The notes under the pieces were generated by a model, which was not told where the DNA came from, searched no databases, and saw only the letters and a program-made list of their open reading frames with translations. A stretch of 64,000 nucleotides of DNA from Thermodesulfobacteriota bacterium (lineage in GTDB: Bacteria; Desulfobacterota; Binatia; UBA9968; JAJDTQ01). The stretch's first letter is position 1. Each line of letters starts with the position of its first letter. The position numbers and the translations under genes are program-made. Below, piece by piece: positions 11,836-60,202 of this stretch. Where the stretch lies: the NCBI GenBank assembly GCA_965116735.1, contig OZ220712.1, forward strand, positions 181,907 through 245,906, given 5' to 3'.

Positions 11836-11966
11836 GGGAGTCCGTGATCGCGTGGGCTTCCAGGGAGTTTCGCAACGGGAAGAAGCGAGCAAATAAAGGG
11901 GTTTAGTGGCCTTTATTTCATGTAGCAGGCCACCATCCGTGAGACCCACGGAGAAAGGAATCCGCC

Positions 11967-30992: not shown

Positions 30993-31133
30993 GGCCGTAT
31001 CTCCTTCCTGGCTGCGGTCGGGCCTCCGTTCCGCCACCGCAAAGGCTGGGTCCAGATTGAAGAAATCTCCGTTGTCTTGTACCTTCGATGGAGGTCCACT
31101 ATCAACCTGCGGCATGGCGGCACAGAGGGATAC

Positions 31134-32030
31134 ATGGCCTTCATCGTAAGCGAGAAACTGTCAGCCTATGATCCAGACATCCAACTCGCCGAGTCGATGA
31201 TACTCCTCGGGGACGCCCAACATGTCCTCTCCCGTTTGCCTCGCGAATCTGTCCAGTGTGTGGTGACGTCGCCGCCCTACTGGGGTCTAAGGGACTACGA
31301 TATCAAGGATCAGATCGGACTGGAGCCGACGCTTCCACAGTTCGTCAACCGCCTCATCGCCGTTTTTCAAGAAGTCAAACGAGTTCTGAAACCGGGCGGG
31401 ACCTTCTGGTTGAACGTGGGGGATGGCTATACGAGCGGGAACCGGACTTGGCGTGCTCCTGACAAGAAGAACCGCGCCCGCGCAATGTCTGTGCGCCCTG
31501 AGACACCGGACGGTCTCAAGCCAAAGGATCTGATAGGGGTTCCATGGCGTCTCGCGCTGGCACTTCAGGAAGATGGCTGGTACCTGCGTAGTGACATCGT
31601 CTGGCACAAGCCCAACGCCATGCCCGAAAGCGTGAAGGATCGTCCGACACGAGCCCACGAGTACATTTTTCTATTCACCAGAAGCGAGCGCTACTACTAC
31701 GACCACGACGCAATCAAGGAGCCCGGTGGCAATGGCGCGCGCAAGCGCAATCGCCGGTCGGTATGGGATGTGAACACAGAGCCGACCAAGGATGCCCACT
31801 TCGCGACGTTTCCACCTAAACTGATCGAACCTTGTATCCTCGCGGGGAGCCGTCCCGGCGACTACGTGTTGGACCCATTCTTCGGTACCGGTACGGTGGG
31901 TCTTGTCTGCCAGAAGACCGGCAGGAAATACATCGGAATCGAGCTGCATCCGGAATACGTCGAACTGGCGGCGGGCCGTTTGTCGAAGCACGAACGGCAA
32001 CTTGAGCTCAACCTGAGAAGTCCGCGATGA
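31134..32030 (+). CDS. DNA methyltransferase, beta class (N4-cytosine or N6-adenine; the SPPY motif favours m4C)
   Basis: Motif IV TSPPYW comes before motif I DPFFGTGT. AGAGGGA RBS. Confidence 0.9.
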   Translation: MAFIVSEKLSAYDPDIQLAESMILLGDAQHVLSRLPRESVQCVVTSPPYWGLRDYDIKDQIGLEPTLPQFVNRLIAVFQEVKRVLKPGGTFWLNVGDGYTSGNRTWRAPDKKNRARAMSVRPETPDGLKPKDLIGVPWRLALALQEDGWYLRSDIVWHKPNAMPESVKDRPTRAHEYIFLFTRSERYYYDHDAIKEPGGNGARKRNRRSVWDVNTEPTKDAHFATFPPKLIEPCILAGSRPGDYVLDPFFGTGTVGLVCQKTGRKYIGIELHPEYVELAAGRLSKHERQLELNLRSPR

Positions 32031-33148
32031 TCAACCTACCCGGTCCCCAACTTCAGATCGATTTCTCCAGGTCACTGAAAACAATCCGAAACCAGATGTT
32101 GCAGCAGGCGCTCCTGGCAACCGTCCGGGATGCCTCTCTTGAAGAGATTGACGCGGAACTTCGCGAGTATGCGACCGAGGAGGATCTCAAGCGCCTTGCC
32201 GCGCATGGCCTCAGGGGCGAGCTTTCCGGTTCCTTGTCTGCTCCGCCGAAACCCCCGGCTTCTGGGCTACTACAGGCTGCTGCTCGGTTTCAGCCAGAAG
32301 GCATTCTACGGCAGCGGCGGTGGTGCGGGTCCATTCAAGAGCATGGAGGACAGCGGTACGTTGTCCACTCACCAGGACGAGTCCCTGCACGATCTCTGCG
32401 GGGCGATGGTTGGTTGTGCATCGCTGCTGCTGGAGGCGTTCGACGAGGGAGATATCGAGCCTCAATTCCTCGATGACCTGACGCTGCTGACCCTGGGACC
32501 GCAACTGCGAGGCGGGGCGAACGTCAGAAAGGGCAGCGCGGGGATCGTGGTGGTCTTCGACGCTATCCGGGAAGTGGTCAAGGGGAACATACGAAAACAG
32601 AGCAGCAGACGCCTCGACATAAACAACGCTTCAGGCCGGAAGGTGACGATACAGTTCGCCGCTGATCCCGACATCGTCATCATGGAGCAAATGACTCCCG
32701 AGGTGCACCGAAACGTCATTGCCATAGAGGTCAAATCAGGTACGGACTTCTCCAACATCCACAACCGGATCGGCGAGGCCGAGAAGAGTCACCAGAAGGC
32801 TAGTGTCCTGTCTCACGTAATTCTTTACTAAGATGCGCAGGATTTTTTGTTGTCGGCAAGGCGCGATGACGAGCAGTGGCGGGCACCACGCGAGGAAGAG
32901 CAACGCAGCCGACGACAAAAAAGACCAGCAGATTAGTAAAGAATTACGTGGGACAGGACACTAGACAGGCGGGCTTCGTCGAATGTTGGACCATCGTCAA
33001 TGTCGACAAGATCGACCTGGAGATGGCGCGTCAGGAGTCCCCGTCTACCAATCGCTTCTACCGTATCTCCGAACTCAAGCGAGGCGAAGGCGACGAGTTT
33101 CGCGACTTTCGTTCCCGCGTACTCTCGCTGGTGGGAATTCCGGGCTGA
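32027..33148 (+). pseudogene. type II restriction endonuclease (PD-(D/E)XK; possibly XcyI/Cfr9I-like), inactivated by a frameshift and a MITE insertion
   Basis: ATGA-coupled start at 32027 and a frame change near 32215..32226. ..DPDIVIM..IAIEVKSG.. catalytic motif. The ORF runs into MITE copy 3, and deleting MITE + one CTAG joins it in frame to the tail ending at 33148. Confidence 0.65.
32800..32964. mobile_element. MITE copy 3 (165 bp; variant termini)
   Basis: ctagtgtcctgtctcacgtaattctttactaa ... ttagtaaagaattacgtgggacaggacactag. The core is near-identical to copies 1 and 2. Confidence 0.85.
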
Positions 33149-33159
33149 TCCGGAGCCGA

Positions 33160-34443
33160 TCACAGATCCGCCTGGCGGATCTCCCTCCTGAACGTCAACA
33201 GACCCAGCGTCGTGGCGACGCAGATGGCGGCGCCGGCGACGAGGGTCAGGGGGGCGCCGATCAATGCGGCGACGAAACCGGACTGCGCCTCTCCCAGGCT
33301 CGTGCCGCCCACTCCCAGCATCCGCTGGAAGCTCAGGACCCGTCCTCTCAGGTTGTCGGGAGTGTTGCTCTGGATGACGACGTTGCTGAGCAGCATCGGA
33401 AGGGTCTCGAAGAGGCCCAGCAGGAACACCGCCGCCATCGATAGCAGGAACCAGCCGGAATAAGCCAGCACGACCAGCGCAACGGCATAGGCGAAGATGC
33501 CGAACGCCGCCCAAAGCCCCTTGTAGCGAAGGTCGTTCACGGACAACACCATGGCGATGCCCAGGCTGGAGCCGGCGGCCGCGCCGGACAGCAGCAGGCC
33601 GAGGCCTTCGGCGCCGACGCCGAGGACGGCCACGAAGATGGGCAGAAGGGCCCGGTGGCTCCCGAAGTACACGGTCAGGACCTCGACGGATAGGAAGGCC
33701 CACACCTTGGACTCCCGGCGAACGAACGCGATGCCTTCCATCAGGCTTCGGAAGGGCGAGCCGGGCTCCTTGGATACCTTCGAAGTGTAGTGGACCGCTA
33801 TCACGAACAAGGCAGCCGACAGGAACACGGCGCCGTTCAGGGCGTAGGTGAGTCCGGAGCCGAGCCAGACGATGAGGAAGCCCGTCAGGACCGGGCCCCC
33901 GAGCTGCGACAGCTTCCGGGCCATGGCCGCGAGGGAGACGGCGTTGAGGAGCATCTCGCGCGGCACCAGTCCCGGCACCATGGCGTTGCGGGCGGGCGCG
34001 CCGAGGGCGTTCAACGCCGCGTTCATGAAGCCCCCGACATAGATGTGCCAGACCTCGATCAGGCCCGTGACCGCCAGGAACGCGAGGGTCGCATTCACGA
34101 CGCCGTTGCAGGTCTGCACCAGAATCACGAACCGGCGGCGGTCGATGCGGTCGGCCAGGACCCCGCCGATAGGCGAGAGCACGAAGACGGGAATCGCGCG
34201 CACCAGTCCGGTGAGCCCCAGGTGGAAGGCGGAGCCCGTCAACTCGTAGATGAGCCACAGCTCCAGGGTTCGCTGGATGTAGAAACCGAAGGACGTGGCC
34301 AGGATGGCCAGACACAACAGGCGGAAACCACGATGGACCAGTGCGCCGCGGGATGGCTTCAGTCTCGTGATCCTCCGTTTGCCTGTTTCGTTGTGACGGC
34401 GAGGGTTGCCGGAGCGGCCCGCGGGCCGCCCCGGCATTTGCAA
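33160..34443 (-). CDS. MFS transporter (EntS/MFS_3-like)
   Basis: Hydrophobic 12-TM-like ORF, paralogous to 17483..18799. Start uncertain. Confidence 0.8.
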   Translation of the reverse strand: MQMPGRPAGRSGNPRRHNETGKRRITRLKPSRGALVHRGFRLLCLAILATSFGFYIQRTLELWLIYELTGSAFHLGLTGLVRAIPVFVLSPIGGVLADRIDRRRFVILVQTCNGVVNATLAFLAVTGLIEVWHIYVGGFMNAALNALGAPARNAMVPGLVPREMLLNAVSLAAMARKLSQLGGPVLTGFLIVWLGSGLTYALNGAVFLSAALFVIAVHYTSKVSKEPGSPFRSLMEGIAFVRRESKVWAFLSVEVLTVYFGSHRALLPIFVAVLGVGAEGLGLLLSGAAAGSSLGIAMVLSVNDLRYKGLWAAFGIFAYAVALVVLAYSGWFLLSMAAVFLLGLFETLPMLLSNVVIQSNTPDNLRGRVLSFQRMLGVGGTSLGEAQSGFVAALIGAPLTLVAGAAICVATTLGLLTFRREIRQADL

Positions 34444-49678: not shown

Positions 49679-50386
49679 ATGAACGCGAAGGAATGGCGCA
49701 ACGAGCTTGGTGAGATCGTCAGGGACTTCTTCCGCTCCCCGGAGATGGGGCAGTTCTACGAAACCCCCATCACGCTGGAGCGCGCGCGACTCTACCTGTC
49801 GCAGCTCGGCATCTACGTCCGCCAGCGGCGCCACTACTGGCCCCAGGTGGCGGCCAACTGCCCCGTGCACCTGGTGAAGCAGCGTATCCTGTCCCACGAG
49901 TACGAGGAGCTGGTGGAGGACGATTATTCCGACAAGGGACACCTGGACCTGATCTTCCGGCAGGGCCGGGAGGTGGGGCTCAGCGAGGAGCAGGTGCTGG
50001 ACGCGGAGCCGCTCCCCACCACCCGGGCGGCCATCTACGGCTGGTGGTGGATTGCCCGCAACAAGCCGTGGCAAGAGGCCCTGGCCGCCTCCACCATCGC
50101 CGAGTGGACCAACGACGACCGCCTGCTGGGAGACCTGGGCGGCGGCAACTGCGGCCGGTTGTACGAGCGCTGGAGCCGGGACCTCAACTTCACCGACGAG
50201 CAGATGCCCAACTTCACCGCGCATCGGGCCGCGGACGAGAAGCACTCCGAGATGTTCCTGGACATCTTCGAGCGGTTGGTGCCGGAGGGCGCCGAGGAAG
50301 GCGTGCTGAGCACCGCCAGGGAGTCCATGGACATCCACCGGGCGTACTTCGGCGGCATGGCCGCGGCCATGGCGCGGCTGTCGTAG
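49679..50386 (+). CDS. heme-oxygenase-like fold protein (TenA/PqqC / iron-containing redox enzyme family)
   Basis: 235-aa helical protein with E..H / E..E-type motifs (..LSHEYEELVED.., ..ADEKHSEMF..). AGGAGA RBS. Confidence 0.65.
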   Translation: MNAKEWRNELGEIVRDFFRSPEMGQFYETPITLERARLYLSQLGIYVRQRRHYWPQVAANCPVHLVKQRILSHEYEELVEDDYSDKGHLDLIFRQGREVGLSEEQVLDAEPLPTTRAAIYGWWWIARNKPWQEALAASTIAEWTNDDRLLGDLGGGNCGRLYERWSRDLNFTDEQMPNFTAHRAADEKHSEMFLDIFERLVPEGAEEGVLSTARESMDIHRAYFGGMAAAMARLS

Positions 50387-50421
50387 GTGCCGGATACGAA
50401 ACCGTCATTGCCCGGCCCCTC

Positions 50422-50450
50422 CGTCATTCCCGCGCAAGCGGGAATCCAGG
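50422..50450. repeat. REP family E (cgtcattcccgcgcaagcgggaatccagg)
   Basis: Hairpin read directly. Confidence 0.75.
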
Positions 50451-50498
50451 GGTGGGGCGAGGCGCGGCGTCCGATTCTGACCAGCACAGGTGTTTCGT

Positions 50499-51518
50499 AT
50501 GAAGATGGAACTCAAAGACCTCAACGACTCGCTGGCCGAGCACGACCTCTCGGGTTTCTGGAACACCCGCACGCCCGAGCACCAGGACGAGGCGCCGTAC
50601 CTGTGGAAGTGGCGCGAGGTGTACCCGTGCCTGATGGATGCCAGGGAGTCCGTGGGGCTGGAGCTGGCGGAGCGCCGGGCCATCCGGCTCGTGAACCCGC
50701 AGAACCCCACCCGCGCGACCTCCCGGACGCTGCTCTTCACTTTCTCGGTGGTGAACTCCGGCGAGATCGCGCGGCCCCACCGCCACAACATGGCGGCCAT
50801 CCGTTTCGTGGTGAAGGGGAGCGGCGCCTTTACGCTGGTCGAGGGCGAACGCTTTCCCATGCACGAGGGAGACCTGATCCTCACCCCTAACTGGACCTGG
50901 CACGAGCACCACAATGAATCCGACGAGCCCATTGTGTGGCTCGACGGCCTTGACGGCCCGCTCATCAACGCGCTCAACGTGCTGTTCTTCGAGAACTACG
51001 ACAAGGACACCCAAGGGGTGAGCCGCGCCGACGGCGACGCGCAGATGCGCTTCGGCTTCGCCCGCCCGCCGGCCAAAGCGGAATCGCCGGGGCGGGGGCT
51101 GCCGTTCCGTTACCGCTGGGAGGACACCGACGCGTCGCTTCACAACATCGCCGACGCCGAGGCGGACCCCTTCGACGGCCACTTGGTGCGCTACATCAAC
51201 CCGGTGACCGGCGGCTACACCATGGCGACCCTGTCCTGCGAGGCGCAGATGTTCAAGCCGGGCTGGGTCACCGGCACCCACCGGCACACCAGCACATCGC
51301 TGTACCACGTGTTCCGCGGCCGCGGCCGGACCGCGGTGGGGGAGGGGTTCCTGGAGTGGGAGAAGGGCGACTCGTTCATGATCCCCAACTGGCAGTGGCA
51401 CCGCCACGAGAACCCTTTCGAAGAGGAAGCGGTGCTCTTCACCATGAACGACCGGCCGGTGCTGGAGGCGTTGGATCTCTACCGGGAAGAGCAGCGTCCC
51501 GGCGGCAACGGCTCCTGA
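50499..51518 (+). CDS. gentisate 1,2-dioxygenase-like bicupin (paralogue 4)
   Basis: HRH..WHEH and HRH..WHRH in the two cupin halves. Confidence 0.85.
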   Translation: MKMELKDLNDSLAEHDLSGFWNTRTPEHQDEAPYLWKWREVYPCLMDARESVGLELAERRAIRLVNPQNPTRATSRTLLFTFSVVNSGEIARPHRHNMAAIRFVVKGSGAFTLVEGERFPMHEGDLILTPNWTWHEHHNESDEPIVWLDGLDGPLINALNVLFFENYDKDTQGVSRADGDAQMRFGFARPPAKAESPGRGLPFRYRWEDTDASLHNIADAEADPFDGHLVRYINPVTGGYTMATLSCEAQMFKPGWVTGTHRHTSTSLYHVFRGRGRTAVGEGFLEWEKGDSFMIPNWQWHRHENPFEEEAVLFTMNDRPVLEALDLYREEQRPGGNGS

Positions 51519-51563
51519 CCGAACGCGCGAACGCCGCATCCAATCACGAACGCGATTCCGACC

Positions 51564-53168
51564 ATGTCCTATCCCGACCTTCAAGAGCACCTGTCCAACC
51601 TGGAGTCCGCCGGACTCCTGTTGCGCATCCGCCACCCCATCAACAAGGACACGGAGATGCACCCGCTGGTGCGCTGGCAGTTCCGCGGCGGCCTTCCCGA
51701 GGCGGAACGCAAGGCCTTCCTGTTCGAGAACGTGGTGGACAGCCACGGGCGCACCTACGACATGCCGGTGGCGGTGGCCGCGCTGGCGGCGTCGCCGCAG
51801 GTGTACTCGGTCGGGCTGCAACGTCCGGTGGACGAGATCCCCGAGCTTTGGGCCCATGCCTTGGCGAATCCCATCGAGCCGGCCATCGTTGATTCGGGGC
51901 CCGTCCACGACGTCGTGCTACAAGGCGCCGACCTGGATATCGAGGGCGGCGGGCTGCTGCAGCTCCCGGTGCCCATATCCACGCCGGGGTTCGACAACGC
52001 TCCCTACACCACCTGCTCGCACTGGTTCACCAAGGACCCCGATACCGGCATCCGGAACCAGGGCAACTACCGCGGGCAGATCAAGAGCCAGAAGCGCGTG
52101 GGCATGTACGCCGGCATGCACCAGCACATCTTCCCGCACTGGGACAAGCGCCGCGAGCGGGGCGAGCCGCTGCACGCCGCGCTGGTGGTGGGGGCGCCGC
52201 CGGTGGTCTCCTACGGCACCGTGCAGAAGGTTCCGCCGGGGGTGGACGAAATGGGCATCGCCGGCGGGCTGGCCGGAGAGCCCGTCCGGCTGGTGCGCTG
52301 CAAGACCGTGGACATCGAGGTCCCCGACAACGCGGAGATCGTCGTCGAGGGGCTGATCAACACCGACTTCGTGGAGCCCGAGGGCCCCTTCGGCGAGTCC
52401 CACGGCTACCTGCACCCGCGCACGGTGTCGCCGTTCATGGAAGTGACCGCCATCACCATGAAGCGCAAGCCCGTGCTGTGCTCGTTCATCAGCCAGGTGA
52501 CCCCCAGCGAGTCCAGCGTCATCAAGAAGGTGGGCTACGAGCCGCTCCTGCGCCGCTACCTGCGCGACACCGTGGGCATCAAGAGCGTCACCCAGGTGGC
52601 CATGCACGAGCCCCTCACCAACCTGCGCAAGCTCGTCATCGTGCAGATGAGCAAGCCCGCGGAAGGGGACGTCTGGCGCGCCCTGAACAGCATCGCCAAC
52701 TACCAGCACGGCGTCGGCAAGATCGCTATCGCCGTGGACGACGACATCGACCCTCATAACCTGGACGCGGTGTGGTGGGCCATCTGCTATCGCTCCAAGC
52801 CTCACCAGGACGTGGTGATCCTGCCGGGCCGGGTCAAGGGCCACTCGCCGCCGTTCGAGGACGAGGGCCACCTGGTCACGGCCAAGGAGATGTTCTACCA
52901 GCCGGCCACCGACTCCGGGATGCTCATCAACGCCATCCTCAAGGAGCCGTTCCCGCCCATCTCGCTGCCCAAGCGCGAGTTCATGGAGCATGCCCTGGAA
53001 CTGTGGAACCGGCTGGAGCTGCCGCCCCTGAAACCCCAGGCGCCGTGGTACGGCTATTCGCTGGGCCAGTGGGACGACGAGTGGGAGGAGGAGGCGCAGC
53101 TCGCGGTGAAGAGCGACTATCTCCAGACCGGCGCCAAGCTGGCCAAGCGCCGGGTGAAGCCGGGCTGA
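51564..53168 (+). CDS. UbiD-family (prFMN-dependent) decarboxylase
   Basis: MSYPDLQEHLSNLESAGLL.RI....KDTE.HPLVRWQF.. typical UbiD N-terminus. 534 aa. Confidence 0.9.
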   Translation: MSYPDLQEHLSNLESAGLLLRIRHPINKDTEMHPLVRWQFRGGLPEAERKAFLFENVVDSHGRTYDMPVAVAALAASPQVYSVGLQRPVDEIPELWAHALANPIEPAIVDSGPVHDVVLQGADLDIEGGGLLQLPVPISTPGFDNAPYTTCSHWFTKDPDTGIRNQGNYRGQIKSQKRVGMYAGMHQHIFPHWDKRRERGEPLHAALVVGAPPVVSYGTVQKVPPGVDEMGIAGGLAGEPVRLVRCKTVDIEVPDNAEIVVEGLINTDFVEPEGPFGESHGYLHPRTVSPFMEVTAITMKRKPVLCSFISQVTPSESSVIKKVGYEPLLRRYLRDTVGIKSVTQVAMHEPLTNLRKLVIVQMSKPAEGDVWRALNSIANYQHGVGKIAIAVDDDIDPHNLDAVWWAICYRSKPHQDVVILPGRVKGHSPPFEDEGHLVTAKEMFYQPATDSGMLINAILKEPFPPISLPKREFMEHALELWNRLELPPLKPQAPWYGYSLGQWDDEWEEEAQLAVKSDYLQTGAKLAKRRVKPG

Positions 53169-53185
53169 TGGTCCGCGTCGCAACA

Positions 53186-53225
53186 GCGTCCTTCGACTCC
53201 GCTTTGCTACGCTCAGGACGAACGG
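53186..53225. repeat. REP family D unit
   Basis: gcgtccttcgactccgctttgctacgctcaggacgaacgg is the reverse complement of part of 55835..55951. Confidence 0.75.
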
Positions 53226-53231
53226 GTTCCC

Positions 53232-54239
53232 ATGCCTGATTCCTGCCGCCTCCGCTTGGCCTGCCGCAACTACGACGGCACCAATGCCATCCTCCGGGGC
53301 GTCCTCGATGCTCCGGGAATCGAGCTGGAGCCCGTGGAGCAGGTGAGCGTGCAGGGCATGTTCGCGGCGATGTACCGGGGCGAGTTCGACGTCTCGGAGA
53401 TGTCCCTGGCCGAGCTGATCTACTACACGTCGCGCAACCAGAACGATTTCATCGGAGTTCCGGTGTTTCCGTCCCGGATGTTCCGGCACGGTTTCATCGT
53501 GGTGCGGCGCGACGCCGGTATCGACACGCCCCAGGACCTCGTGGGCAAGCGCCTGGGCTTCCTGCGCTGGGTGCAGACCGCCGCGGTGTGGATCCGCGGC
53601 ATGCTGACGGACGAGTACGGCGTGACGCCGAAGAACTCCCAGTGGCACGCGGGCTCGCTGCACCATTGGGACGACGGCGCCACCGAGACCTCGGTGAAGC
53701 TTCCGGGCGGCGCCGCCATCGAGGTGCTGCAGGGGGAGGGGAGCGCCGCCGAGCGGGCCATGCGCGCGCTGCGCGAGGGACGGCTGGACATGCTCGGGGT
53801 GACCGAAACGCAACTGCCGCCGCTGCTGGCAGACCCGGCGCTGAAGCGGCTGTTCGAGGACTATCGGCAGGTCGAGGCGGACTACTTCAGAAAGACCCGG
53901 ATCCTCCCGATCATGCACGTGCTGGCGGTCAAGAAATCGGTAGTGGAGCAGTATCCGGATACTCCCGCCGCCCTCTTCGAGCTGTTCAGCCGGGGCAAGC
54001 GGCAGGCACGCCAGTGGTTCGCCGATATGCCGAGCCAGGTGATGGCGTGGCGCCAGCACGCCCTGGAGCAGGAACACGAGGTGTTCGGCGGCGACCCGTG
54101 CCCCTACGGGCTCGACGCCAACCGCGACGTCCTCAACACCTTCATCGAGTACTGCGAGGCCCAGGGCATCTGCGAGCGCAACCTGTCGCCCGAGGAACTG
54201 TTCGCGCCAGCGACCTGGGACTTGGCGGAGCCGGTGTAG
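53232..54239 (+). CDS. 4,5-dihydroxyphthalate-decarboxylase-like PBP2-fold protein, no signal peptide
   Basis: ..LRLACRNYDGTNAILRG.... ..EFDVSEMSLAELIY.. pattern. Confidence 0.75.
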   Translation: MPDSCRLRLACRNYDGTNAILRGVLDAPGIELEPVEQVSVQGMFAAMYRGEFDVSEMSLAELIYYTSRNQNDFIGVPVFPSRMFRHGFIVVRRDAGIDTPQDLVGKRLGFLRWVQTAAVWIRGMLTDEYGVTPKNSQWHAGSLHHWDDGATETSVKLPGGAAIEVLQGEGSAAERAMRALREGRLDMLGVTETQLPPLLADPALKRLFEDYRQVEADYFRKTRILPIMHVLAVKKSVVEQYPDTPAALFELFSRGKRQARQWFADMPSQVMAWRQHALEQEHEVFGGDPCPYGLDANRDVLNTFIEYCEAQGICERNLSPEELFAPATWDLAEPV

Positions 54240-54260
54240 GGGCGGGTTTCAAACCCGCCC
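54236..54260. repeat. REP family A (supplies the TAG stop of 53232..54239)
   Basis: gtaggggcgggtttcaaacccgccc. Confidence 0.85.
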
Positions 54261-54329
54261 GCGGTCGGACCGCCGCGGCGGCCGGGGATGGGAAACAACA
54301 ACAGTATCGAAGCCATAGAGAGGTGACCC

Positions 54330-55811
54330 ATGGCCAGACCGCAACGGATACACGACGCCGAGCTGACCCCCTTCGACGACCTTCGCGTGTGGCTCGCGCA
54401 GGTGGAGGAGAAGGGCCAGTTGGAGCGCATATCCGGCGCCCACTGGGACCTGGAGGTGGGCGCGCTGAACGAGATCATCTGCGAGCGCACGCCGACCCCG
54501 CCCGCGCTGCTGTTCGAGGACGTCGTGGGGCACGAAGGTAAGGGTCGGGTGCTGGCCAACATGATGGAGACCATGGAGCGCACCGCGCTCGCCCTGAACC
54601 TGCCTCCGGATCTCAGCACCCTCGAGGTCATCGACCGGCTGCGCACGCGTCTAGCCTCCTTGGAGCCGGTGGAGCCGCGGGTGCTGGCGACCGGGCCGGT
54701 CATGGAAAACCGTCATACCGGCGACGACATCAACATCCTCGACATCCCCGTTCCGCGCTGGCACTCGGGCGACGGCGGCCGTTACCTGGGCACCGCGCAC
54801 CTGGTGGTCACGCGGGATCCGGAGACGGGCGACGAGAACGTGGGCTGCTACCGGGTCATGGTGCACGAGCGCGACAAGCTCGCGCTCTACATCTCGCCGG
54901 GCAAGCACGGTCGCATGCACATGGAAAAGACGCTCCGCGCCGGTAAGCCCATGCAGGTGGCCATGGCCTTCGGCCAGCACCCGCTGATCTTCATGGCCGC
55001 GACCCAGGCGGTGCCCCCGGGCGTGAGCGAGTACGCCTGGGCCGGCGGCCTGGTGGAACAGCCCCTGAGCGTCATCGAGGCGCCCATCACCGGGCTCCGC
55101 GTGCCCGCCGCCGCGGAGATCGTAGTGGAAGGGGAGATCATCCCCGGCGACACCCGCCCCGAGGGCCCCTTCGGCGAGTGGACCGGCTACTACGCCAGCG
55201 CCCGCCGGGCCGAGCCGGTCGTGCAGTTGAAGGCCGTTTACCACCGGGACAATCCGATCCTCACCGGCGCGCCGCCGTTCCGTCCCACCATCCACGGCAT
55301 GTACCGCTCCATGCTGCGTTCGGCGATGATCTGGAACGGTGTGGAGAGGGGCGGGGTGCCGGACGTGGTGGGTGTGTACGTGCCGCCGCCGGCCCAGCGT
55401 TTCATGATCGTCGTCTCCATTCGGCAGCGTTACCCGGGCCATGCCAAGCAGGCGGCGATGATGGCCGCCCAGTGCCACGCCGGCGCCTACCTCGGCCGCT
55501 ACGTGGTGGTGGTGGTGGACGACGACGTGGACATCACCAACCTGAACGAGGTGGTGTGGGCCATGTGCACGCGCTCCAACCCCGAGGAGTCCATCGACAT
55601 CATCCGCCGCACCTGGAGCGGGCCGCTGGACCCCATCATCCCGCGCGACAAGAAGGGCCTCAACTCCCGCGCCATCATCGACGCCACCCGGCCCTTCGAG
55701 TGGAAGGACCAGTTCCCGGCGGTGAGCCAGATCGACAAGGAGACACACGACGCCGTGTCCGGCAAGTGGCAGGACGAGTTGGACCGGGTGGTGCGGGGGC
55801 ACCGGCAATAG
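54330..55811 (+). CDS. UbiD-family decarboxylase
   Basis: 493 aa. ..FDDLRVWLAQVEEKGQLERI.. AGAGAGG RBS. Confidence 0.9.
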   Translation: MARPQRIHDAELTPFDDLRVWLAQVEEKGQLERISGAHWDLEVGALNEIICERTPTPPALLFEDVVGHEGKGRVLANMMETMERTALALNLPPDLSTLEVIDRLRTRLASLEPVEPRVLATGPVMENRHTGDDINILDIPVPRWHSGDGGRYLGTAHLVVTRDPETGDENVGCYRVMVHERDKLALYISPGKHGRMHMEKTLRAGKPMQVAMAFGQHPLIFMAATQAVPPGVSEYAWAGGLVEQPLSVIEAPITGLRVPAAAEIVVEGEIIPGDTRPEGPFGEWTGYYASARRAEPVVQLKAVYHRDNPILTGAPPFRPTIHGMYRSMLRSAMIWNGVERGGVPDVVGVYVPPPAQRFMIVVSIRQRYPGHAKQAAMMAAQCHAGAYLGRYVVVVVDDDVDITNLNEVVWAMCTRSNPEESIDIIRRTWSGPLDPIIPRDKKGLNSRAIIDATRPFEWKDQFPAVSQIDKETHDAVSGKWQDELDRVVRGHRQ

Positions 55812-55834
55812 GCGCCTCGCTACGCCTGTCCCAA

Positions 55835-55951
55835 GCCCTTCGACAAGCCTGTCCTGAGCTTGTCGAAGGGCTCAGGACAGGCTTGAAGAAGGGCTCGGGA
55901 CGAACGGGATTCCCGTTCGTCCTGAGCGTAGCGAAGCGAAGTCGAAGGACG
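55835..55951. repeat. REP family D cluster (several interlocking hairpins)
   Basis: gcccttcgacaagcctgtcctgagcttgtcgaagggctcaggacaggc... cgaacgggattcccgttcgtcctgagcgtagcgaagcgaagtcgaaggacg. Confidence 0.75.
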
Positions 55952-55972
55952 TTGGACCGAGAGGAGCACGAC

Positions 55973-56584
55973 ATGAGCGATGCCATCAAACTTTACGATT
56001 TCAAGACCTCGCCCAACTGCCAGCGGGTGAAGGTGGTGCTGGAAGAGAAGGGGCTGGACTACGAGACGGTCCCCATCGACCTGCGCAAGCAAGAGCAGAA
56101 GGCGCCGGAATACCTCGCCATGAACCCCTACGGCAAGGTGCCGGTGCTGGTGGACGGCGACACCGTGCTCTACGAGTCCTGCATCATCAACGAGTACCTG
56201 GAGGACAGGTACCCCGATCCGCCGCTGCTGCCAGCCGACCCCTCGGCACGGGCCCGCATCCGCATCCTCATCGACTACGGCATCAACCACACCAACGACA
56301 GCCACCAGGCGGTCCGCGCGGAGATGATGAAGGCCGAGGGCGAGCGCGACGCCGGCGCCCTGGCCGCGGCCAAGGCACGGTTCCTCGAGGAGTTGCAGCC
56401 CCTGGAGCGCGAGCTGGAAGGCCGCGACTACATGGCCGGCGACTTCTCGCTGCTCGACGCCGCTCACCTGCCGCGGGTCATGCGCCACGTCGAGTGGGGC
56501 ATCCTGCCGGATCCGAGCGTACCGTTGCTGAATGCGTGGTACGAGCGCATGACCGCGCGCGCGTCCGTCCGTGCCCTTGCCTGA
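55973..56584 (+). CDS. glutathione S-transferase
   Basis: ..LYDFKTSPNCQRVKVVLEEKGLDYE.. Trx-like N domain plus helical C domain. Confidence 0.9.
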   Translation: MSDAIKLYDFKTSPNCQRVKVVLEEKGLDYETVPIDLRKQEQKAPEYLAMNPYGKVPVLVDGDTVLYESCIINEYLEDRYPDPPLLPADPSARARIRILIDYGINHTNDSHQAVRAEMMKAEGERDAGALAAAKARFLEELQPLERELEGRDYMAGDFSLLDAAHLPRVMRHVEWGILPDPSVPLLNAWYERMTARASVRALA

Positions 56585-57713
56585 GTCCCCGCGGATCGTC
56601 CTTCTCGGCATCGGCCACACCAACGCTCACGTCCTCGACATGTGGCGTCGGGAACCCATTCCCGGCGCCCGCCTCGTGTGCGTGTCGAGCTTCGCCGCCG
56701 CCACCTACTCCGGCATGCTGCCCGGCACGTTGTCCGGCCAGTACCCGCCCGGCACCCTGGAAATCGACCTCCGGAGCCTCGCGAACGCGGCCAGGGCCGA
56801 GCTCGTGGTGGCGCCGGCGCTTGCCGTGGACATGGAAACGCGGACCGTGCGGTTCGAGGACCGCGAGCCGGTTCCCTTCGACGTCCTATCGGTCGGCGTC
56901 GGCTCGGTGCCCAACCGCGCCGGCATCGATGCGCCCGCCGGCGCCTGGGTTCCCATCAAGCCCATGCAGACCTTCCTCATGCGCCTCTACGAGTGTCTCC
57001 AGGAGTTGAAGTGGCAAGGCAGGGAGGCCATCCGGACATTGATCATCGGCGGCGGCGTGGGCGGCATCGAGATCAGCCTGTGCCTGCCCGCATACCTGAA
57101 CCGGTTGTCCGGCGGGTTGCGCTACGCCATCACCATCGCCGATGCCGGCGAGCGCATCGGCGGCGGCCTGTCTCCCCGGGCGTTGCGCCGCGCGGAGGCG
57201 CTGCTGGCGGTCCGGGGCGTCGAAGTGCTCACGGGCACCCGGATCACGCGCGTCGAGGAACGGGAAGCCGTGTACGCGGACGGCCGCCGCACTCGCGCGG
57301 ATCTGGTCATCCTCGCCGCCGGGGCGGCTCCGCCGCCAGTAGTGGAAAACATGGACCTGCCGAAGGACTCGAGAGGGTTCCTGCTCACCCGGGACACCCT
57401 CCAGTCCACCGGCCCGGCCAACGTCTTTGCGGTAGGAGACAGCGGCACCCTGGAAGGCGCCGCCACACCCAAGGCCGGCGTCTACGCCGTCCGCCAGGGA
57501 CCGGTTCTATGGAACAACATCGGCGCCCTCGTACGCGGCGAACCGCTGTCCCCCTACGAACCCCAGCACGACTTCCTGCGCCTCCTCAACACCGGCGACG
57601 GCAAAGCGCTCATGGACTACAAGGGCTGGTCCGCCCACGCCCGCTGGTGCTGGTGGTTCAAGGACTACCTCGACAGCCGCTTCATGGCGCGGTTCCGGGT
57701 TGTCCGGGGCTGA
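56571..57713 (+). CDS. FAD-dependent pyridine-nucleotide-disulfide-type oxidoreductase (NDH-2/SQR-like)
   Basis: ..IVLLGIGHTNAH.. ..YSGMLPG.. ..IIGGGVGGIE.. GTG start overlapping the GST end by 14 nt. Confidence 0.75.
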   Translation: MPLPESPRIVLLGIGHTNAHVLDMWRREPIPGARLVCVSSFAAATYSGMLPGTLSGQYPPGTLEIDLRSLANAARAELVVAPALAVDMETRTVRFEDREPVPFDVLSVGVGSVPNRAGIDAPAGAWVPIKPMQTFLMRLYECLQELKWQGREAIRTLIIGGGVGGIEISLCLPAYLNRLSGGLRYAITIADAGERIGGGLSPRALRRAEALLAVRGVEVLTGTRITRVEEREAVYADGRRTRADLVILAAGAAPPPVVENMDLPKDSRGFLLTRDTLQSTGPANVFAVGDSGTLEGAATPKAGVYAVRQGPVLWNNIGALVRGEPLSPYEPQHDFLRLLNTGDGKALMDYKGWSAHARWCWWFKDYLDSRFMARFRVVRG

Positions 57714-57767
57714 TGGCGGAGCAACACAGAAGTCGGAACCGCCGTTTTGTCCACCCTCGTCAACGCA

Positions 57768-57796
57768 AACGGGGCTGCGCCCGACGCAGCCCCGTT
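57768..57796. terminator. 12-bp perfect GC-rich hairpin, possible bidirectional terminator
   Basis: aacggggctgcg-cccga-cgcagccccgtt, between the convergent ends 57713 (+) and 57873 (-). On the minus strand it is followed by tttgcgtt. Confidence 0.45.
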
Positions 57797-57872
57797 CATT
57801 AAGATCCTTGCGTGCCAGTGGGACACAAGGGAAGATAAACAACAGGAAAGATATCGATCTGTTGACGACTCG

Positions 57873-58286
57873 TCAAGGCACATCGCGCCATTTGGCGAGC
57901 GCGGCCAACTCTGTAGCATGTTGTTTCTGCCTGTCCCTCCGTTGGTCGTCGTACGGTAGATTCAGGAAGATGTCGGCGTGGTACACATTGTCTTCCTTGG
58001 GGGTCGCCCTTACGGACCGTCCGCTGGAAGCAGCTTCGACTACCTCCAGGGTTGCCCAACCGTAGAAGTCCCGGGGAGGAGTCCTTTGACGCCCCGTATT
58101 CTCTGACAATGCGGCTAGGTCGGTCGGGGAGGCGTGGTCCATCCGATCCACCGAGATCGAGTCGGCTCCCAGGCTCTCAAGAAAAACGTCAGGAACGACG
58201 ATTCCCCTTCTGCCTCGCTTCGCCAAGCGGCTTGAGAATACGCTCCTGCCTATGGTTTCGGAATCGTGAAGTTCTGGAAGAGTCAC
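57873..58286 (-). CDS. hypothetical protein C of the orphan 3-gene operon (137 aa)
   Basis: GTG start 2 nt after the stop of gene B. AT-rich patch. No family recognised. ..GWATLEVVEAASSGRSV..NVYHADIFLNLP.. then RRDRQKQH. Confidence 0.55.
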   Translation of the reverse strand: MTLPELHDSETIGRSVFSSRLAKRGRRGIVVPDVFLESLGADSISVDRMDHASPTDLAALSENTGRQRTPPRDFYGWATLEVVEAASSGRSVRATPKEDNVYHADIFLNLPYDDQRRDRQKQHATELAALAKWRDVP

Positions 58287-58288
58287 GC

Positions 58289-58870
58289 TCAGGTGTCTGC
58301 GAGTCGCTGTAGCTGTTCTCTCACGAAGCCATCGGGGAGTTCGGAAGCATCGTCATACCGGGCGCGACGATTTTTCCCGTTGACGTATGAGAAACACGCA
58401 CCCTCTCCGTCGTTTCCGACCAAAATCAAGACGGCAGACTTGGCCGCGATTGGCTTGAAATAGAGAGCGATCTCGCCGTCTTCGGTAGGATACACGGTCG
58501 GAGCGATTGATTGGGTCGCTAGTGCGGAGAGAATTCGCCTCGCCTGGTCCTTTGTGCTGGGAAAGATCTCTGGCAAGGACTCGCCCACCGCTTCTTGGTC
58601 TACGTCGTTCAATTCCGCCAGCGCGGTGTCGAGCCAGTCCTTGCGTTGCGTGATTTCTTGAGTTCCGTGAAACAATACCCAAGGATCGGCTGATCGGCCG
58701 TCAAGGGCATGAGTCCGCAACGACAACGGTGGCAGCGACGAGTTGTAGGGTAGGGACGTCGACTGCGTTTCTAGGGCCGTTCCTTGCCTTTTGCGTAAGT
58801 ATTCCCTTGTCGCCCGCGCCTTTTCGAACGTAGTGACGTCGCGGGCGAGGCTGCCAGCCTGCGGGGTCAT
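58289..58870 (-). CDS. hypothetical protein B of the orphan 3-gene operon (193 aa)
   Basis: ATGA overlap with gene A. No family recognised. Confidence 0.6.
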   Translation of the reverse strand: MTPQAGSLARDVTTFEKARATREYLRKRQGTALETQSTSLPYNSSLPPLSLRTHALDGRSADPWVLFHGTQEITQRKDWLDTALAELNDVDQEAVGESLPEIFPSTKDQARRILSALATQSIAPTVYPTEDGEIALYFKPIAAKSAVLILVGNDGEGACFSYVNGKNRRARYDDASELPDGFVREQLQRLADT

Positions 58871-59577
58871 TGCGGGTTCTCTCCAAGGTATGTCAATCCC
58901 ATGGCTTCATCCCCCAATCTGTCGATTCGAACCCAAAGTTCCCGTTGTTCATCAAATGACGTCAACTGTTGCGAGCCAATAAGTATCATCGTAGTGACGA
59001 AAACGCCGTTCGCCAGAAAGGCGGACTTTTCGAGTGTGCGGTGTAGAGACCAGCGGCCTTGTTTGTCCGAGAGTGTGATCTTTGCGGCTGGACTATACTC
59101 GATCTGCATGTCGGCCGCCGCGATGTCGATCGGCTCCTTCCAAGCGAATTGAGCCAGATACGTGTCCACAGCACCGTCGTTCACCGCAGGGGCGTGTTCG
59201 CTCGAGTTGATGGATACTTGATCTCTTCCATAGCACCCGAGATCTCGCGACAGAATATCCGTTGACTGGCGGATGATTTCGTTGACGGTGGGATAGTCGT
59301 TTTCGGTCAAACTACCGAAGTTCAACTGCAGAGTCCCCGGGCTGAGCACGATGGTGCTCGCTCCACCAAATATCCGATATGTGCACCGGGATTCTCCGAG
59401 CTCCGAAGAGTCGTTGGAGTGGAAGTCGTGCGGCCGAACCGAGAGCAGGTCCCCGAGTTCGCGGACAATCGCGGCCATGAAGGTTGTCTCCGCCGCGCCC
59501 CACGCAGTGATGAAGGGAGACAACTCGAAGGTTATCGAGAGGTTCTGCCTCTCTGCTTTCCGTAGCTGGATCTTCAT
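58867..59577 (-). CDS. hypothetical protein A of the orphan 3-gene operon (236 aa)
   Basis: First gene of the operon. A perfect TATAAT lies 12 nt upstream of the ATG. No family recognised. Confidence 0.6.
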   Translation of the reverse strand: MKIQLRKAERQNLSITFELSPFITAWGAAETTFMAAIVRELGDLLSVRPHDFHSNDSSELGESRCTYRIFGGASTIVLSPGTLQLNFGSLTENDYPTVNEIIRQSTDILSRDLGCYGRDQVSINSSEHAPAVNDGAVDTYLAQFAWKEPIDIAAADMQIEYSPAAKITLSDKQGRWSLHRTLEKSAFLANGVFVTTMILIGSQQLTSFDEQRELWVRIDRLGDEAMGLTYLGENPQ

Positions 59578-59589
59578 CGGTCCGAGTCA

Positions 59590-59595
59590 ATTATA
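59590..59595 (-). promoter_or_regulatory. possible -10 box (TATAAT) of the 3-gene operon
   Basis: Minus strand reads ..ttgtagaggcagttttcgtgaTATAATtgactcggaccgATG. Confidence 0.3.
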
Positions 59596-59643
59596 TCACG
59601 AAAACTGCCTCTACAACGGATCACACCCCTCCCCATCTTGGCA

Positions 59644-59802
59644 TCACTCACATGCCCCTACGGTTTCTCGTACTGTTTCGCCCCGTACATGGTCGCCCTT
59701 GCGGATGTCGATGGGGTGGATGCGGTATTCCAGCTCCAGCTCCTCCAGCGCAATGTGCAGCTTGCGGCCGTTGCTGGTCCGCCACGAGTATGCCTCGATC
59801 AT
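59644..59802 (-). pseudogene. glutathione S-transferase N-terminal remnant
   Basis: MIEAYSWRTSNGRKLHIALEELELEYRIHPIDIRKGD.. is a GST (YfcG/YghU-like) N-terminus. Similarity is lost after ~36 codons and the frame stops at codon 53. Confidence 0.55.
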
Positions 59803-59809
59803 GGTGACA

Positions 59810-60202
59810 CTAATCCCTTTCTCCGGTCCGCAGCCTTCGCTCCCAGTCGTACTCGCGGTTGGTGACCATGTTCTCCATGCGTTGGATGCGACGGTCGAGT
59901 TGACCGAAGGTGCGGCGCAGGCGATTCAGCGCAGCCGTACGCGAGTGCGCGTAGCTGTTGTAGAAGTCCTGTTCTCCTTCCGTCTGCAAGGGCAGCACGG
60001 GCTCCGGCTTCAGGACCAGGGCGGCGAGCAGATAGAGGCCGGCAAACGGCCAGAATCCGGTGCTGATCAACAGGACGACGGCGATCACGCGGATCCACAA
60101 CACCCGCACGTCCAGGTGTTCCGCGAGACCGCGACACACGCCCAGAATGACGCCGCGACGCGAGCGATAGATGCGGGCAGTCCTCGAATAGCCTCGAATC
60201 AT
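59810..60202 (-). CDS. pspC: envelope stress response membrane protein PspC
   Basis: ..IYRSRRGVILGVCRGLAEHLDV.. PspC domain plus TM. 4-nt overlap with pspB. Confidence 0.85.
   Translation of the reverse strand: MIRGYSRTARIYRSRRGVILGVCRGLAEHLDVRVLWIRVIAVVLLISTGFWPFAGLYLLAALVLKPEPVLPLQTEGEQDFYNSYAHSRTAALNRLRRTFGQLDRRIQRMENMVTNREYDWERRLRTGERD

Follow-up and report, generated by a model that had tools for sequence, protein, structure and literature searches.

A conserved gene pair with a replaceable upstream partner: a candidate toxin-antitoxin-like module in Binatia

The window analysed here, by which the whole stretch of 64,000 nucleotides is meant, carries a compact cassette of three genes, A, B and C. 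The conserved unit of this cassette is the pair formed by B and C, with A as a third gene that can be replaced. With moderate confidence we regard the locus as a new module of the type II toxin-antitoxin-like or abortive-defence kind that moves horizontally, and we infer within it toxicity of C, neutralisation of C by B, and contact between A and B. The features of the locus are as follows.

57768..57796, no strand assigned: hairpin rich in G+C that separates C from the convergent FAD oxidoreductase gene
57873..58286, minus strand: gene C, 137 aa, GTG start; family unnamed, putative effector or toxin
58289..58870, minus strand: gene B, 193 aa, ATG start
58289..58636, minus strand: conserved C-terminal domain of B, residues 79-193 and the stop codon, pI 4.4 (acidic)
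58637..58870, minus strand: N-terminal extension of B, residues 1-78, pI 9.8 (basic), poorly conserved
58867..59577, minus strand: gene A, 236 aa, ATG start, pI 4.8 (acidic); accessory upstream partner, family unnamed
59590..59598, minus strand: extended -10 promoter element TGATATAAT, 12 nt upstream of the ATG of A, read from sequence
59644..59802, minus strand: remnant of a GST gene, first ~36-40 codons, 52-aa open reading frame; context, outside the system

The initial annotation had described a self-contained operon of three same-strand genes with unnamed proteins; the open reading frames have identical coordinates, and family searches bear out the rest. A and B share 4 nt (ATGA), and the TGA stop of B lies 2 nt from the GTG start of C. 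The resemblance of this geometry to that of toxin-antitoxin genes extends to relatives, which keep 4-nt overlaps or 2-nt gaps; the B/C junction is a 2-nt gap in L010, as in the window, and a 4-nt overlap in L001, L002 and L008. B and C form an adjacent, co-directional operon of small genes, an arrangement that belongs to the definition of type II toxin-antitoxin systems. The cassette is AT-rich, as had been estimated from two short lines of letters, with a G+C content of 56.7% (0.567) compared to 65.9% (0.659) for the whole window. The fraction is 0.54-0.60 across 57650-59900, 0.65-0.73 on the left side (50000-57650) and 0.61-0.64 in the psp genes on the right side. Other low-GC islets within the same window hold a VapBC-type pair and a DNA methyltransferase.

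Long spurious reading frames are common in a high-G+C window, the adjoining GST gene is broken and C starts with GTG; on these grounds the three frames could be taken for non-functional or decaying remnants within spacer DNA that an old insertion left behind. We find this hardly credible. A, B and C are regarded as real genes because homologues exist for all three and because dN/dS against syntenic relatives is 0.12-0.32 across them (0.12-0.17 for A), which points to purifying selection; the degradation of the frames that had been raised as a concern is not the case. Hundreds of homologue clusters with conserved lengths and motifs, confident structure models and a conserved promoter also argue against decay.

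The strongest regularity among relatives is the pairing of B with C. In all but one of the 57 genome loci that were found with the C profile (56 loci), C is immediately preceded by B; the sole exception is a locus with only a fragment of C, and no intact C without B was seen among these 57 loci. The synteny of all three genes, which had been proposed as a check, is conserved in part: the B-C pair is kept in 56 of the 57 loci, and A is directly upstream of B in about 31 of the 57. Two-gene B-C forms are common, for example in Dehalococcoidia. In decaying modules (L047, L063 and L036) C is damaged and B is intact. Sequence identities for the B domain, C and A are 86, 90 and 65% in L008 and 70, 67 and 81% in L002, so that B tracks C and A does not. 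The pairwise-identity correlations of A with C, of A with the B domain and of the B domain with C are all 0.91-0.93; among close pairs the coupling of B with C is 0.82 compared to 0.70-0.74, a modest excess.

That no family could be recognised for A, B or C had been stated at the outset, and searches of Pfam, NCBIfam, PHROGs and PDB sequences agree: none of the three has a significant match, to housekeeping families or otherwise. Names given to the cluster members in their sources do not go beyond "hypothetical protein". The suggested PADLOC search was mostly empty, with no match for A or C and a single weak, partial match for B (PDC-M32A), and the suggested Foldseek comparison of the A and C models returned no convincing match in the PDB.

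C has 39 close homologue clusters and belongs to a family of at least 645 clusters at E <= 1e-3 in a representative library of 1.84 billion proteins clustered at 50% identity. The best 150 of the 645 clusters are all stand-alone proteins of 80-184 aa. Residues F35, S45, R48, G76, W77, N100, H103 and A104 are invariant, and R14, V46, G89, P96, D105 and I106 are nearly so, with ISVDR and NPYHADI as the recurring motifs. The structure model (pLDDT 95, pTM 0.88) is an alpha/beta fold of six strands and four helices, and the protein is near neutral (pI 6.1). When C and 26 diverse relatives were compared with Pfam, NCBIfam, PHROGs and PADLOC, no matches were obtained and no recognised toxin superfamily emerged; sequence and profile searches of the PDB with C were likewise without a match. 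Foldseek comparison of the C model with the PDB gave no match (best E 0.54, TM 0.3 or less), and comparison with BFVD gave a single borderline, unnamed match (E 5e-3, TM 0.48). The string RRDRQKQH in the window copy of C can be read as the Rx4-6H pattern of HEPN toxins, and the initial annotation was right not to make that call. H123 is replaced by tyrosine or phenylalanine and the arginines of RRD are lost in divergent members, the invariant motifs lie elsewhere (ISVDR, GW, NPYHADI), no HEPN family was matched, and the model is mixed alpha/beta and not an all-alpha-helical bundle.

B consists of two parts. The extension of residues 1-78 is probably disordered, and the domain of residues 79-193 is conserved, with E93, P128, G155, C159, R168, R169, A170, Y172, P179, D180 and F182 invariant across 41 representatives. 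Searches of Pfam, NCBIfam, PHROGs and PDB sequences and profiles with B gave nothing significant; a match to DUF7155 (16.1 bits, E 0.013) is below the 27-bit gathering threshold, and weak matches to it occur in just 4 of the 41 relatives. Family-library scans of these 41 relatives were otherwise empty, apart from weak PDC-M32A matches and the RHH fusions described below. Residues 77-192 of B align to positions 259-375 of the 375 in the PADLOC model PDC-M32A (E 1.8e-5, 21.7 bits, a weak score), which points to a C-terminal domain in common. One homologue, P0117, matches the same model at E 1e-5, and divergent B homologues do not match it. P0117 and P0119, two of the 41 representatives, carry an N-terminal FitA-like RHH domain (PF22513, E 1.9e-18) that replaces the extension, and in L003, where A is absent, C comes after such an RHH-B. 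The window B and most family members have no RHH or other DNA-binding domain. Known type II systems have their DNA-binding domain on the antitoxin, and the fusion on some B homologues can be regarded as an antitoxin-like hallmark. Residues 79-193 are the candidate region for neutralising or partnering C.

The polarity of the pair might also be reversed or different, with the B domain (or A) as the toxic or active part and C as its antidote or regulator, or with B and C as subunits of one enzyme. The B domain is rich in invariant polar residues (E93, C159, R168, R169, Y172 and D180), shows a degree of conservation that would be unusual in an antitoxin and may be catalytic in its own right; its C-terminal RRARY is an Arg/Tyr cluster which we take to be of the sort found in RelE-type RNases. 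B-domain proteins also occur without C, directly downstream of another small partner, DUF4926, in L005 and L007, or alone beside SNF2/NOV_C helicases, which they follow, in the defence islands of L069-L071, and C itself has a near-neutral pI and resembles no known toxin fold. However, RHH domains are found on B and never on C, B persists without C whereas intact C never occurs without B, the broken gene in decaying modules is C, and B precedes C in the operon, as antitoxins more commonly do. We therefore consider a reversed or different polarity decidedly unlikely and retain C as the putative effector and B as its putative neutralising partner.

The place upstream of the pair is variable. A has homologues in 24 clusters, and its AlphaFold model (pLDDT 86.6) contains two tandem beta-alpha-beta(3-4)-alpha units. 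Searches of Pfam, NCBIfam, PHROGs, PADLOC and PDB sequences and profiles with A gave no significant match, and Foldseek comparison of the model with the PDB gave nothing convincing (TM 0.15-0.27); the matches with low E values, namely KICSTOR, YwmB and Bet v1/START/lipocalin folds, have TM values of at most 0.27 and rmsd above 13 A and are not meaningful. In other loci the slot is filled by A8-like, A9-like or A10-like proteins of ~230 aa or by DUF6941 (138 aa), families that are apparently unrelated to one another. Between A and the A8-like group there is a weak collinear match (hhalign E 0.008 over 152 columns), and between A and the A9-like group no similarity was seen. The length of the B extension follows the presence of an upstream partner, counted as A, one of the A8-, A9- or A10-like families, or DUF6941: the extension is at least 59 aa long in 43 of 43 loci with such a gene and can be no longer than 31 aa in 11 of 14 loci without one. 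This correlation, together with the complementary charge of the basic arm and acidic A, suggests that residues 1-78 of B may be a docking arm for A.

Several observations bear on mobility. In 58 of 60 loci the G+C content of the cassette is below that of the flanks, with a mean difference of 6.8 points, and the cassette occupies 38 flanking contexts across 61 loci in about ten phyla, with two copies per genome in two genomes. L065 is an empty site, with psp and the oxidoreductase kept and the cassette absent, and L066 has at the same hotspot HigB, HigA and ParE (PDB E 9e-24, 9e-14 and 6e-7), a toxin-antitoxin island. The company kept elsewhere also speaks for a toxin-antitoxin-like module: L041 has a neighbouring VapBC-like pair (PIN and RHH), judged from its sequence only. 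Synonymous divergence is 0.8-1.6 in the cassette compared to 0.14-0.64 in the flanks, and the alleles at this fixed locus are divergent and mosaic. On these comparisons the cassette is best described as horizontally mobile and, in the present lineage, as ancestral to a Binatia clade with exchange of alleles. The earlier suggestion of acquired cargo can be kept for its AT-richness, its many contexts and its patchiness in close relatives (L065, L066), but not in the sense of a recent insert here. Direct repeats flanking the cassette were not found in the window; they do flank it in L001. No relatives of B or C were found in IMG/VR viral contigs, PLSDB plasmids or INPHARED phages. The family occurs almost only in metagenome-assembled genomes of sponge-associated lineages, as judged by record titles, and the carriers appear to be mostly uncultured, sponge-associated bacteria. 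Binatota are documented from sponges (PMC9999580).

A related possibility is that the cassette is a dedicated anti-phage abortive infection system, in which A-type proteins would be interchangeable phage sensors that free C from B; it overlaps our preferred explanation and places the selective value in defence and not in selfish addiction. The succession of apparently unrelated families upstream of a constant B-C pair would suit such sensors, as would the highly divergent, mosaic alleles at a fixed locus. Defence genes are found near L001, L069-L073 and some C loci: a DUF4145/HEPN-like gene adjoins the cassette in L001, and in L072 and L073 an A9-like/B/C triad lies between HsdM and MntA/HepT. 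A location in defence islands had been named as something to look for, but most C loci lie amid housekeeping genes, and restriction-modification, helicase and transposase genes are a minority of the neighbours. Two-gene forms without a candidate sensor are also common. The domain that B shares with the defence candidate PDC-M32A speaks for a defence role, although the match extends over one third of the model, and PDC-M32 is an unvalidated computational candidate that is listed without a described mechanism (PMC12429752). We consider a dedicated anti-phage function rather unlikely.

The signals around the operon are consistent with independent transcription. The extended -10 element lies so close to the ATG of A that the leader would be very short, and a simple promoter scan missed it for lack of a -35 hexamer at 16-18 nt. 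The motif TG[AG]TATAAT is at an identical distance from the ATG in the window, L009 and L010, and within 0-2 nt of that distance in L002 and L008, in a spacer that has otherwise diverged among these five loci; elements of the TGnTATAnn type are also found at loci of Nitrospirales, other Binatia and Gammaproteobacteria. At the other end, the strong hairpin noticed earlier behind the FAD oxidoreductase gene is real, with a folding energy of -32.4 kcal/mol for a 71-nt stretch (z = -3.8; none of 200 shuffles folded as well). It is probably a bidirectional terminator, which the terminator scan did not call because no T-run follows the hairpin.

Compared to FitAB, VapBC and ParDE, the cassette has the same two small overlapping or abutting genes with the putative antitoxin first, and, as in FitAB-type systems, some B homologues have an N-terminal FitA-like RHH domain followed by a partner-binding part. 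As with type II systems in general, it is patchy, AT-rich, present in many contexts and sometimes in several copies, and shares a hotspot with HigBA and ParDE. It differs from FitAB, VapBC and ParDE in that C belongs to no known toxin superfamily by sequence or fold, the presumed neutralising part of B is a conserved folded domain of ~115 aa and not a short disordered tail, the window B has no DNA-binding domain, and a third gene is usual. Three co-transcribed genes are also found in tripartite systems (TAC, which is HigBA, MqsRA or HicAB with a SecB-like protein, PaaR-PaaA-ParE and omega-epsilon-zeta), and the order of accessory gene, antitoxin and toxin is that of PaaR-PaaA-ParE and omega-epsilon-zeta. 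Antitoxins of TAC systems carry a chaperone-addiction extension, which the partner-dependent extension of B resembles; however, the latter is N-terminal and not C-terminal, and the accessory slot is held by several apparently unrelated families. In contrast to TAC and to operons with a regulator, A is acidic and resembles neither SecB nor the HTH/RHH regulators; no SecB-like match for A was found in Pfam, NCBIfam or the 50 best Foldseek results. The C-terminal domain of B resembles the last third of PDC-M32A (~22 bits), but no full-length match to that model was obtained, and A and C have no PADLOC match at E <= 1, PDC-M32B included.

In the mechanism that we favour, the B-C pair would be the conserved core and C would be a growth-arresting effector, its invariant cluster of Arg, Ser, Trp, Asn, His and Asp being enzyme-like and its substrate most plausibly nucleic acid or a nucleotide. 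B would bind C directly through its acidic C-terminal domain (79-193) and so neutralise it, and its basic arm (1-78) would dock the protein encoded upstream, which in this window is A. A might then stabilise B or gate the neutralisation, for example on stress or phage infection. Transcription would start at the extended -10 promoter that belongs to the operon, and translation would be coupled from A to B to C. A bolder version, tentative and rather improbable in its entirety, would make the B-C pair the chassis of modular three-component sensors: C would have a fold absent from the PDB and a new toxic chemistry at NPYHADI/ISVDR, B would be a two-part adaptor, and the upstream families would be interchangeable sensors that dock on its arm and release C on a phage or other trigger, with exchange across phyla in the sponge holobiont. 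If C is toxic, Pfam, NCBIfam and PADLOC lack a large toxin family (at least 645 clusters) with a confidently predicted fold unmatched in the PDB. The domain of B would likewise be new, an antitoxin or adaptor domain capable of partner switching, which pairs with C, adjoins DUF4926 or helicases, can be fused to RHH and has several upstream partners. The locus would offer a tractable system for the wiring of three-component toxin-antitoxin and defence modules, for spread between phyla within one habitat, and for allelic exchange at a fixed chromosomal hotspot. As the finding illustrates, small low-GC islets in these uncultured high-GC genomes are a good hunting ground for unannotated conflict systems.

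The position of the cassette next to the psp operon allows for a different, non-toxic role, either in stress or small-molecule handling coupled to psp, GST and the oxidoreductase, or as a factor for life in sponges. Members of this Binatia clade that carry the cassette invariably have it flanked by the psp operon/GST on one side and the FAD oxidoreductase on the other, the weak Foldseek matches of A include ligand-binding folds (Bet v1, START, lipocalin), and the family is nearly confined to sponge-associated genomes by record titles. Against this, psp adjacency is one of the 38 flanking contexts, L065 has psp and the oxidoreductase with no cassette, the cassette is served by a promoter and a terminator of its own, and the Foldseek matches of A are too poor to be meaningful. 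RHH fusion, the company of toxin-antitoxin islands and a multi-copy, patchy spread would be unexpected for a metabolic operon. Such an accessory role is very unlikely. The functional link to pspABC that the initial annotation had left open is also unlikely, because the adjacency is confined to one clade, a GST gene intervenes in relatives, and the cassette is preceded by a conserved extended -10 promoter of its own.

The GST gene at the border, which had been read as truncated and as one edge of an insertion, is indeed truncated but is not an insertion scar. The 52-aa frame aligns with no more of GST_N than its first ~40 positions (E 0.004, which falls short of the Pfam cut-off), and its identity as GST was confirmed by tblastn with the intact gene of L002. 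L002, L008, L009 and L010 have the cassette beside GST sequence that is missing here; the truncation is a separate deletion, since the window GST has lost ~530 nt of its interior (7348-7880 in L002) that these cassette-bearing relatives retain. A full GST of 228 aa is present in L002 and L066.

The cassette under study consists of three minus-strand genes, A, B and C, and the ORF listing agrees exactly with the initial annotation, which had described three co-directional ORFs here. The genes and their transcription signals are:

58867..59577, minus strand: A, 236 aa, ATG start
58289..58870, minus strand: B, 193 aa, ATG start
57873..58286, minus strand: C, 137 aa, GTG start
59590-59598, minus strand: perfect extended -10 element TGATATAAT, 12 nt upstream of the A ATG
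about 57768-57796: hairpin between C and the convergent FAD oxidoreductase gene (-32.4 kcal/mol, z -3.8)

The A stop and the B start share ATGA, and the B TGA is followed after 2 nt by the C GTG; among the compared loci (L numbers), this second junction is a 2-nt gap in L010 and a 4-nt overlap in L001, L002 and L008. The cassette is AT-rich, as had been estimated by hand, with a G+C content of 0.567 vs 0.659 for the whole window; values are 0.54-0.60 across about 57650-59900, 0.65-0.73 on the left and 0.61-0.64 in the psp genes at the right. Dead ORFs are barely credible as an explanation, since dN/dS values of 0.12-0.32 against four syntenic relatives indicate purifying selection and the three genes are thus not chance ORFs of a high-GC genome.

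With its own extended -10 element and a hairpin after C, the cassette is an autonomous transcription unit. The motif TG[AG]TATAAT is kept in L002, L008, L009 and L010 at the same distance from the ATG within 0-2 nt; the spacer around it has otherwise diverged, and similar elements are found in other phyla. The strong hairpin proposed as a border next to the FAD oxidoreductase is borne out by its folding energy. A functional link to pspABC, which had been considered, is unlikely in view of these transcription signals and of the flanking contexts, only 1 of 38 of which includes psp; the cassette is not a continuation of the psp operon.

The cassette is built from three unnamed families, as had been suspected when no family was recognised. 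Pfam, NCBIfam and PHROGs contain no significant match for any of these proteins, searching the PDB by sequence and by profile gave nothing, and the sources name the homologues only as "hypothetical protein". AlphaFold models are confident (C pLDDT 95, pTM 0.88; A pLDDT 86.6). Foldseek found no match for the C model in the PDB (best E 0.54, TM 0.3 or less), only low-TM, high-rmsd PDB alignments for A, and one borderline match of C to an unnamed protein among viral models. The C family has 39 close clusters. When 1.84 billion representative proteins were scanned exhaustively with HMMER, 645 clusters reached E <= 1e-3; the top 150 of them are without exception stand-alone proteins of 80-184 aa. 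Among 26 diverse members F35, S45, R48, G76, W77, N100, H103 and A104 are invariant and R14, V46, G89, P96, D105 and I106 nearly so, giving the motifs LGR, ISV(D/N)R, GW and NPYHADI on a beta-alpha-beta-alpha-beta-alpha-beta-beta-alpha-beta model. This pattern resembles an active site in which Arg, His and Asp are accompanied by a stacking Trp, and would fit an enzyme acting on a phosphate-bearing substrate. C was also considered as a HEPN protein and rejected, because its RRDRQKQH segment is not conserved across the family and the model is not helical; the caution of the initial annotation on this point was justified.

Conservation of gene order was surveyed by scanning with a C profile, one genome per species, and mapping A, B and C profiles onto the resulting 57 loci. 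In 56 of the 57, B immediately precedes C, the exception carrying a C fragment only, and in about 31 A immediately precedes B. The synteny of the cassette thus extends to other genomes as a conserved B-C unit with a replaceable A slot. The remaining loci include bare B-C pairs (e.g. in Dehalococcoidia), and in some a different gene of ~230 aa precedes B: an "A8-like" group aligns with A weakly but collinearly (hhalign E 0.008), and no similarity to A was detected for the "A9-like" and "A10-like" groups. DUF6941 fills the slot at one further locus. B itself has two parts, a variable basic N-terminal arm (residues 1-78, pI 9.8) and a conserved acidic C-terminal domain (residues 79-193, pI 4.4) with invariant E93, P128, G155, C159, R168, R169, A170, Y172, P179, D180 and F182. 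The arm is at least 59 aa long in all 43 loci with an upstream partner gene; of the 14 loci lacking one, 11 allow no more than 31 aa. A is acidic (pI 4.8). In two B representatives a FitA-like ribbon-helix-helix (RHH) antitoxin domain (PF22513, E 1.9e-18) replaces the arm, and L003 has an RHH-B and C pair. We infer that the arm is the docking site for A-type partners, and the domain the binding site for C. Identities to the window for B domain, C and A, respectively, are 86, 90 and 65% in L008, 79, 82 and 67% in L066, and 70, 67 and 81% in L002; B domain identity follows that of C and A does not, in line with binding of C by the domain, a signal that is modest because all three correlate similarly over all pairs.

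The B domain also occurs without C: in L005/L007 (4674-5405) a DUF4926 gene is followed directly by one for a 134-aa B-domain protein, and in L069-L071 (about 3001-3400) B-domain proteins of 126-132 aa are encoded about 100 nt 3' of SNF2/NOV_C helicases, the latter sites being clear defence islands with TIR, AAA_15/21, DUF1156 and ThiF genes. The gene found broken is C: in L063 (3538-4783), where a DDE (IS5-like) transposase gene splits the A8-like upstream gene, C lacks its N-terminal third and B is intact. In L064 (2143-5919), a 1258-aa ORF with no Pfam match precedes a divergent C and has segments resembling B close to its C-terminus; it may be a B domain fused to a large protein.

On balance, the cassette is somewhat more probably than otherwise a new module of the type II toxin-antitoxin (TA) or abortive-defence kind. 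C would be the effector, B the neutraliser and adaptor that docks C via its domain, and A a replaceable accessory partner docking on the B arm, with toxicity, neutralisation and A-B contact all inferred. The reading is supported by the strict B-C linkage and order, by the asymmetry in which intact C never occurs without B, B occurs without C and C breaks, by the RHH fusions on B, and by mobility and TA and defence company. Reversed polarity or a two-subunit enzyme is unlikely given that asymmetry. New TA families are found regularly. The module would work like RHH-type type II TA modules and the tripartite systems TAC and PaaR-PaaA-ParE; by homology, however, it belongs to no known toxin superfamily and lacks a SecB-like or HTH partner, it scores under the DUF7155 threshold, and its only PADLOC match, weak and partial, aligns B 77-192 with the last third of candidate PDC-M32A (E 1.8e-5, 21.7 bits), PDC-M32B not being found. 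Its interest lies in a large effector family, a fold with no structural match, a modular adaptor, and spread across phyla within apparently one habitat.

Hosts of C loci are Binatia, Nitrospirales, several Gammaproteobacteria, Vicinamibacterales, Bryobacterales, Dehalococcoidia/SAR202, Latescibacterota, Rhodobacterales, Spirochaetia and Thermodesulfobacteriota. The 57 loci all come from MAGs, and many record titles (Poriferihabitaceae, Porisulfidus "lac_sponge", APA/SB/ROBB bins, Langseth; L008-L064, L072-L073) suggest sponge-associated carriers. Binatota have been documented in sponges (PMC9999580), and the cassette family may circulate mainly in this habitat. In 58 of 60 loci the cassette has a lower G+C content than its flanks, the mean difference being 6.8 points and host G+C running from about 44% to 74%; 38 unrelated flanking contexts occur among 61 loci, and two genomes have two copies each; no relatives were found in IMG/VR, PLSDB or INPHARED.

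The window and L002/L045, L008, L009 and L010 form a Binatia group with the order pspF-pspABC-GST-A-B-C-FAD oxidoreductase-GST-UbiD. Two more relatives of this site came from scanning metagenomes with the oxidoreductase. In L065 (Ga0209022_1002339, 1976-2015) 39 nt separate the FAD oxidoreductase from the pspC that follows it, and the cassette is absent; GST lies elsewhere, beyond pspF, so this region is rearranged too. In L066 (Ga0209544_1000898), A-B-C is accompanied by a 2.4-kb TA island in the gap between A and GST:

9903-12318: TA island
10059-10370: HigA, confirmed against the PDB
10370-10675: HigB, confirmed against the PDB
10835-11080: putative IS3 orfA fragment
11090-11386: putative RelE-like ORF
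11525-11809: putative ParD-like ORF
11806-12144: ParE, confirmed against the PDB

The site is therefore a hotspot for addiction-type modules. Proteins of the flanks are 80-95% identical among members of the clade and A, B and C 53-90% and mosaic. Synonymous divergence is 0.8-1.6 in the cassette vs 0.14-0.64 in the flanks, except for C vs L008 (0.17). This pattern indicates allelic exchange with breakpoints within the cassette. The truncated GST had been taken as a border of the acquired insert:

59644..59802, minus strand: GST N-terminal stub, 52-aa ORF, start of GST

An insertion scar was rejected, because L002, L008, L009 and L010 retain the missing sequence beside the same cassette (full 228-aa GST in L002 and L066). 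The truncation is a later deletion, independent of the cassette, of about 530 nt (vs L002 7348-7880 and L008, L009 and L010); the two BLAST alignments either side share 9 nt at window 59690-59698.

The genes immediately next to C loci mostly have ordinary roles in metabolism or transport, and a smaller share encode transposases, methyltransferases, a restriction enzyme and DpdF-like helicases, as is usual for solitary TA modules and not for defence-island residents. A non-toxic accessory function is quite improbable. An A9-like/B/C triad on sponge metagenome contigs (L072/L073) has a type I methylase gene on one side and a PSK_trans_fac gene and MntA/HepT on the other, and the pair next to L041 reads as VapBC-like. 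A dedicated anti-phage system with A-type sensors, which overlaps with the TA reading, is possible, if on the unlikely side. In L001, on a 2.5-Mb contig whose flanks match Nitrospirales L014/L019, direct-repeat blocks bracket A-B-C and a neighbouring DUF4145/HEPN-like gene (5871-6381 upstream, about 510 nt; 9496-9795 downstream, 300 nt; longest pair 187 nt, 94% identical). They contain several copies of the hairpin-forming unit GGCCGCATCTAATGCGGCC and may be REP-like elements or cassette boundaries.

Two other low-GC islets in the window carry the following:

18894-19576, plus strand: VapBC-type pair in a low-GC islet, by tblastn
18894-19187, plus strand: AbrB/SpoVT-like antitoxin, 97 aa, sharing ATGA with the next ORF
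19184-19576, plus strand: PIN-family toxin, 130 aa (tblastn "toxin-antitoxin system toxin component, PIN family")
about 31131-32030, plus strand: site-specific DNA methyltransferase, SPPY motif
32130-32831, plus strand: 233-aa unidentified ORF, 3' of the methyltransferase

The methyltransferase is 68-70% identical to plasmid-borne ones, lies in a low-GC islet of 2.3 kb (30901-33200), and probably forms a restriction-modification pair with the 233-aa ORF. Separately, the spacer that divides the UbiD-like gene from the second GST contains nested inverted repeats of 25-32 nt (91-92% complementary) at 55824-55901. A translated repeat of the same "FVLSVAKRSRRT" type recurs elsewhere in the window, which suggests a genome-wide REP-like element.
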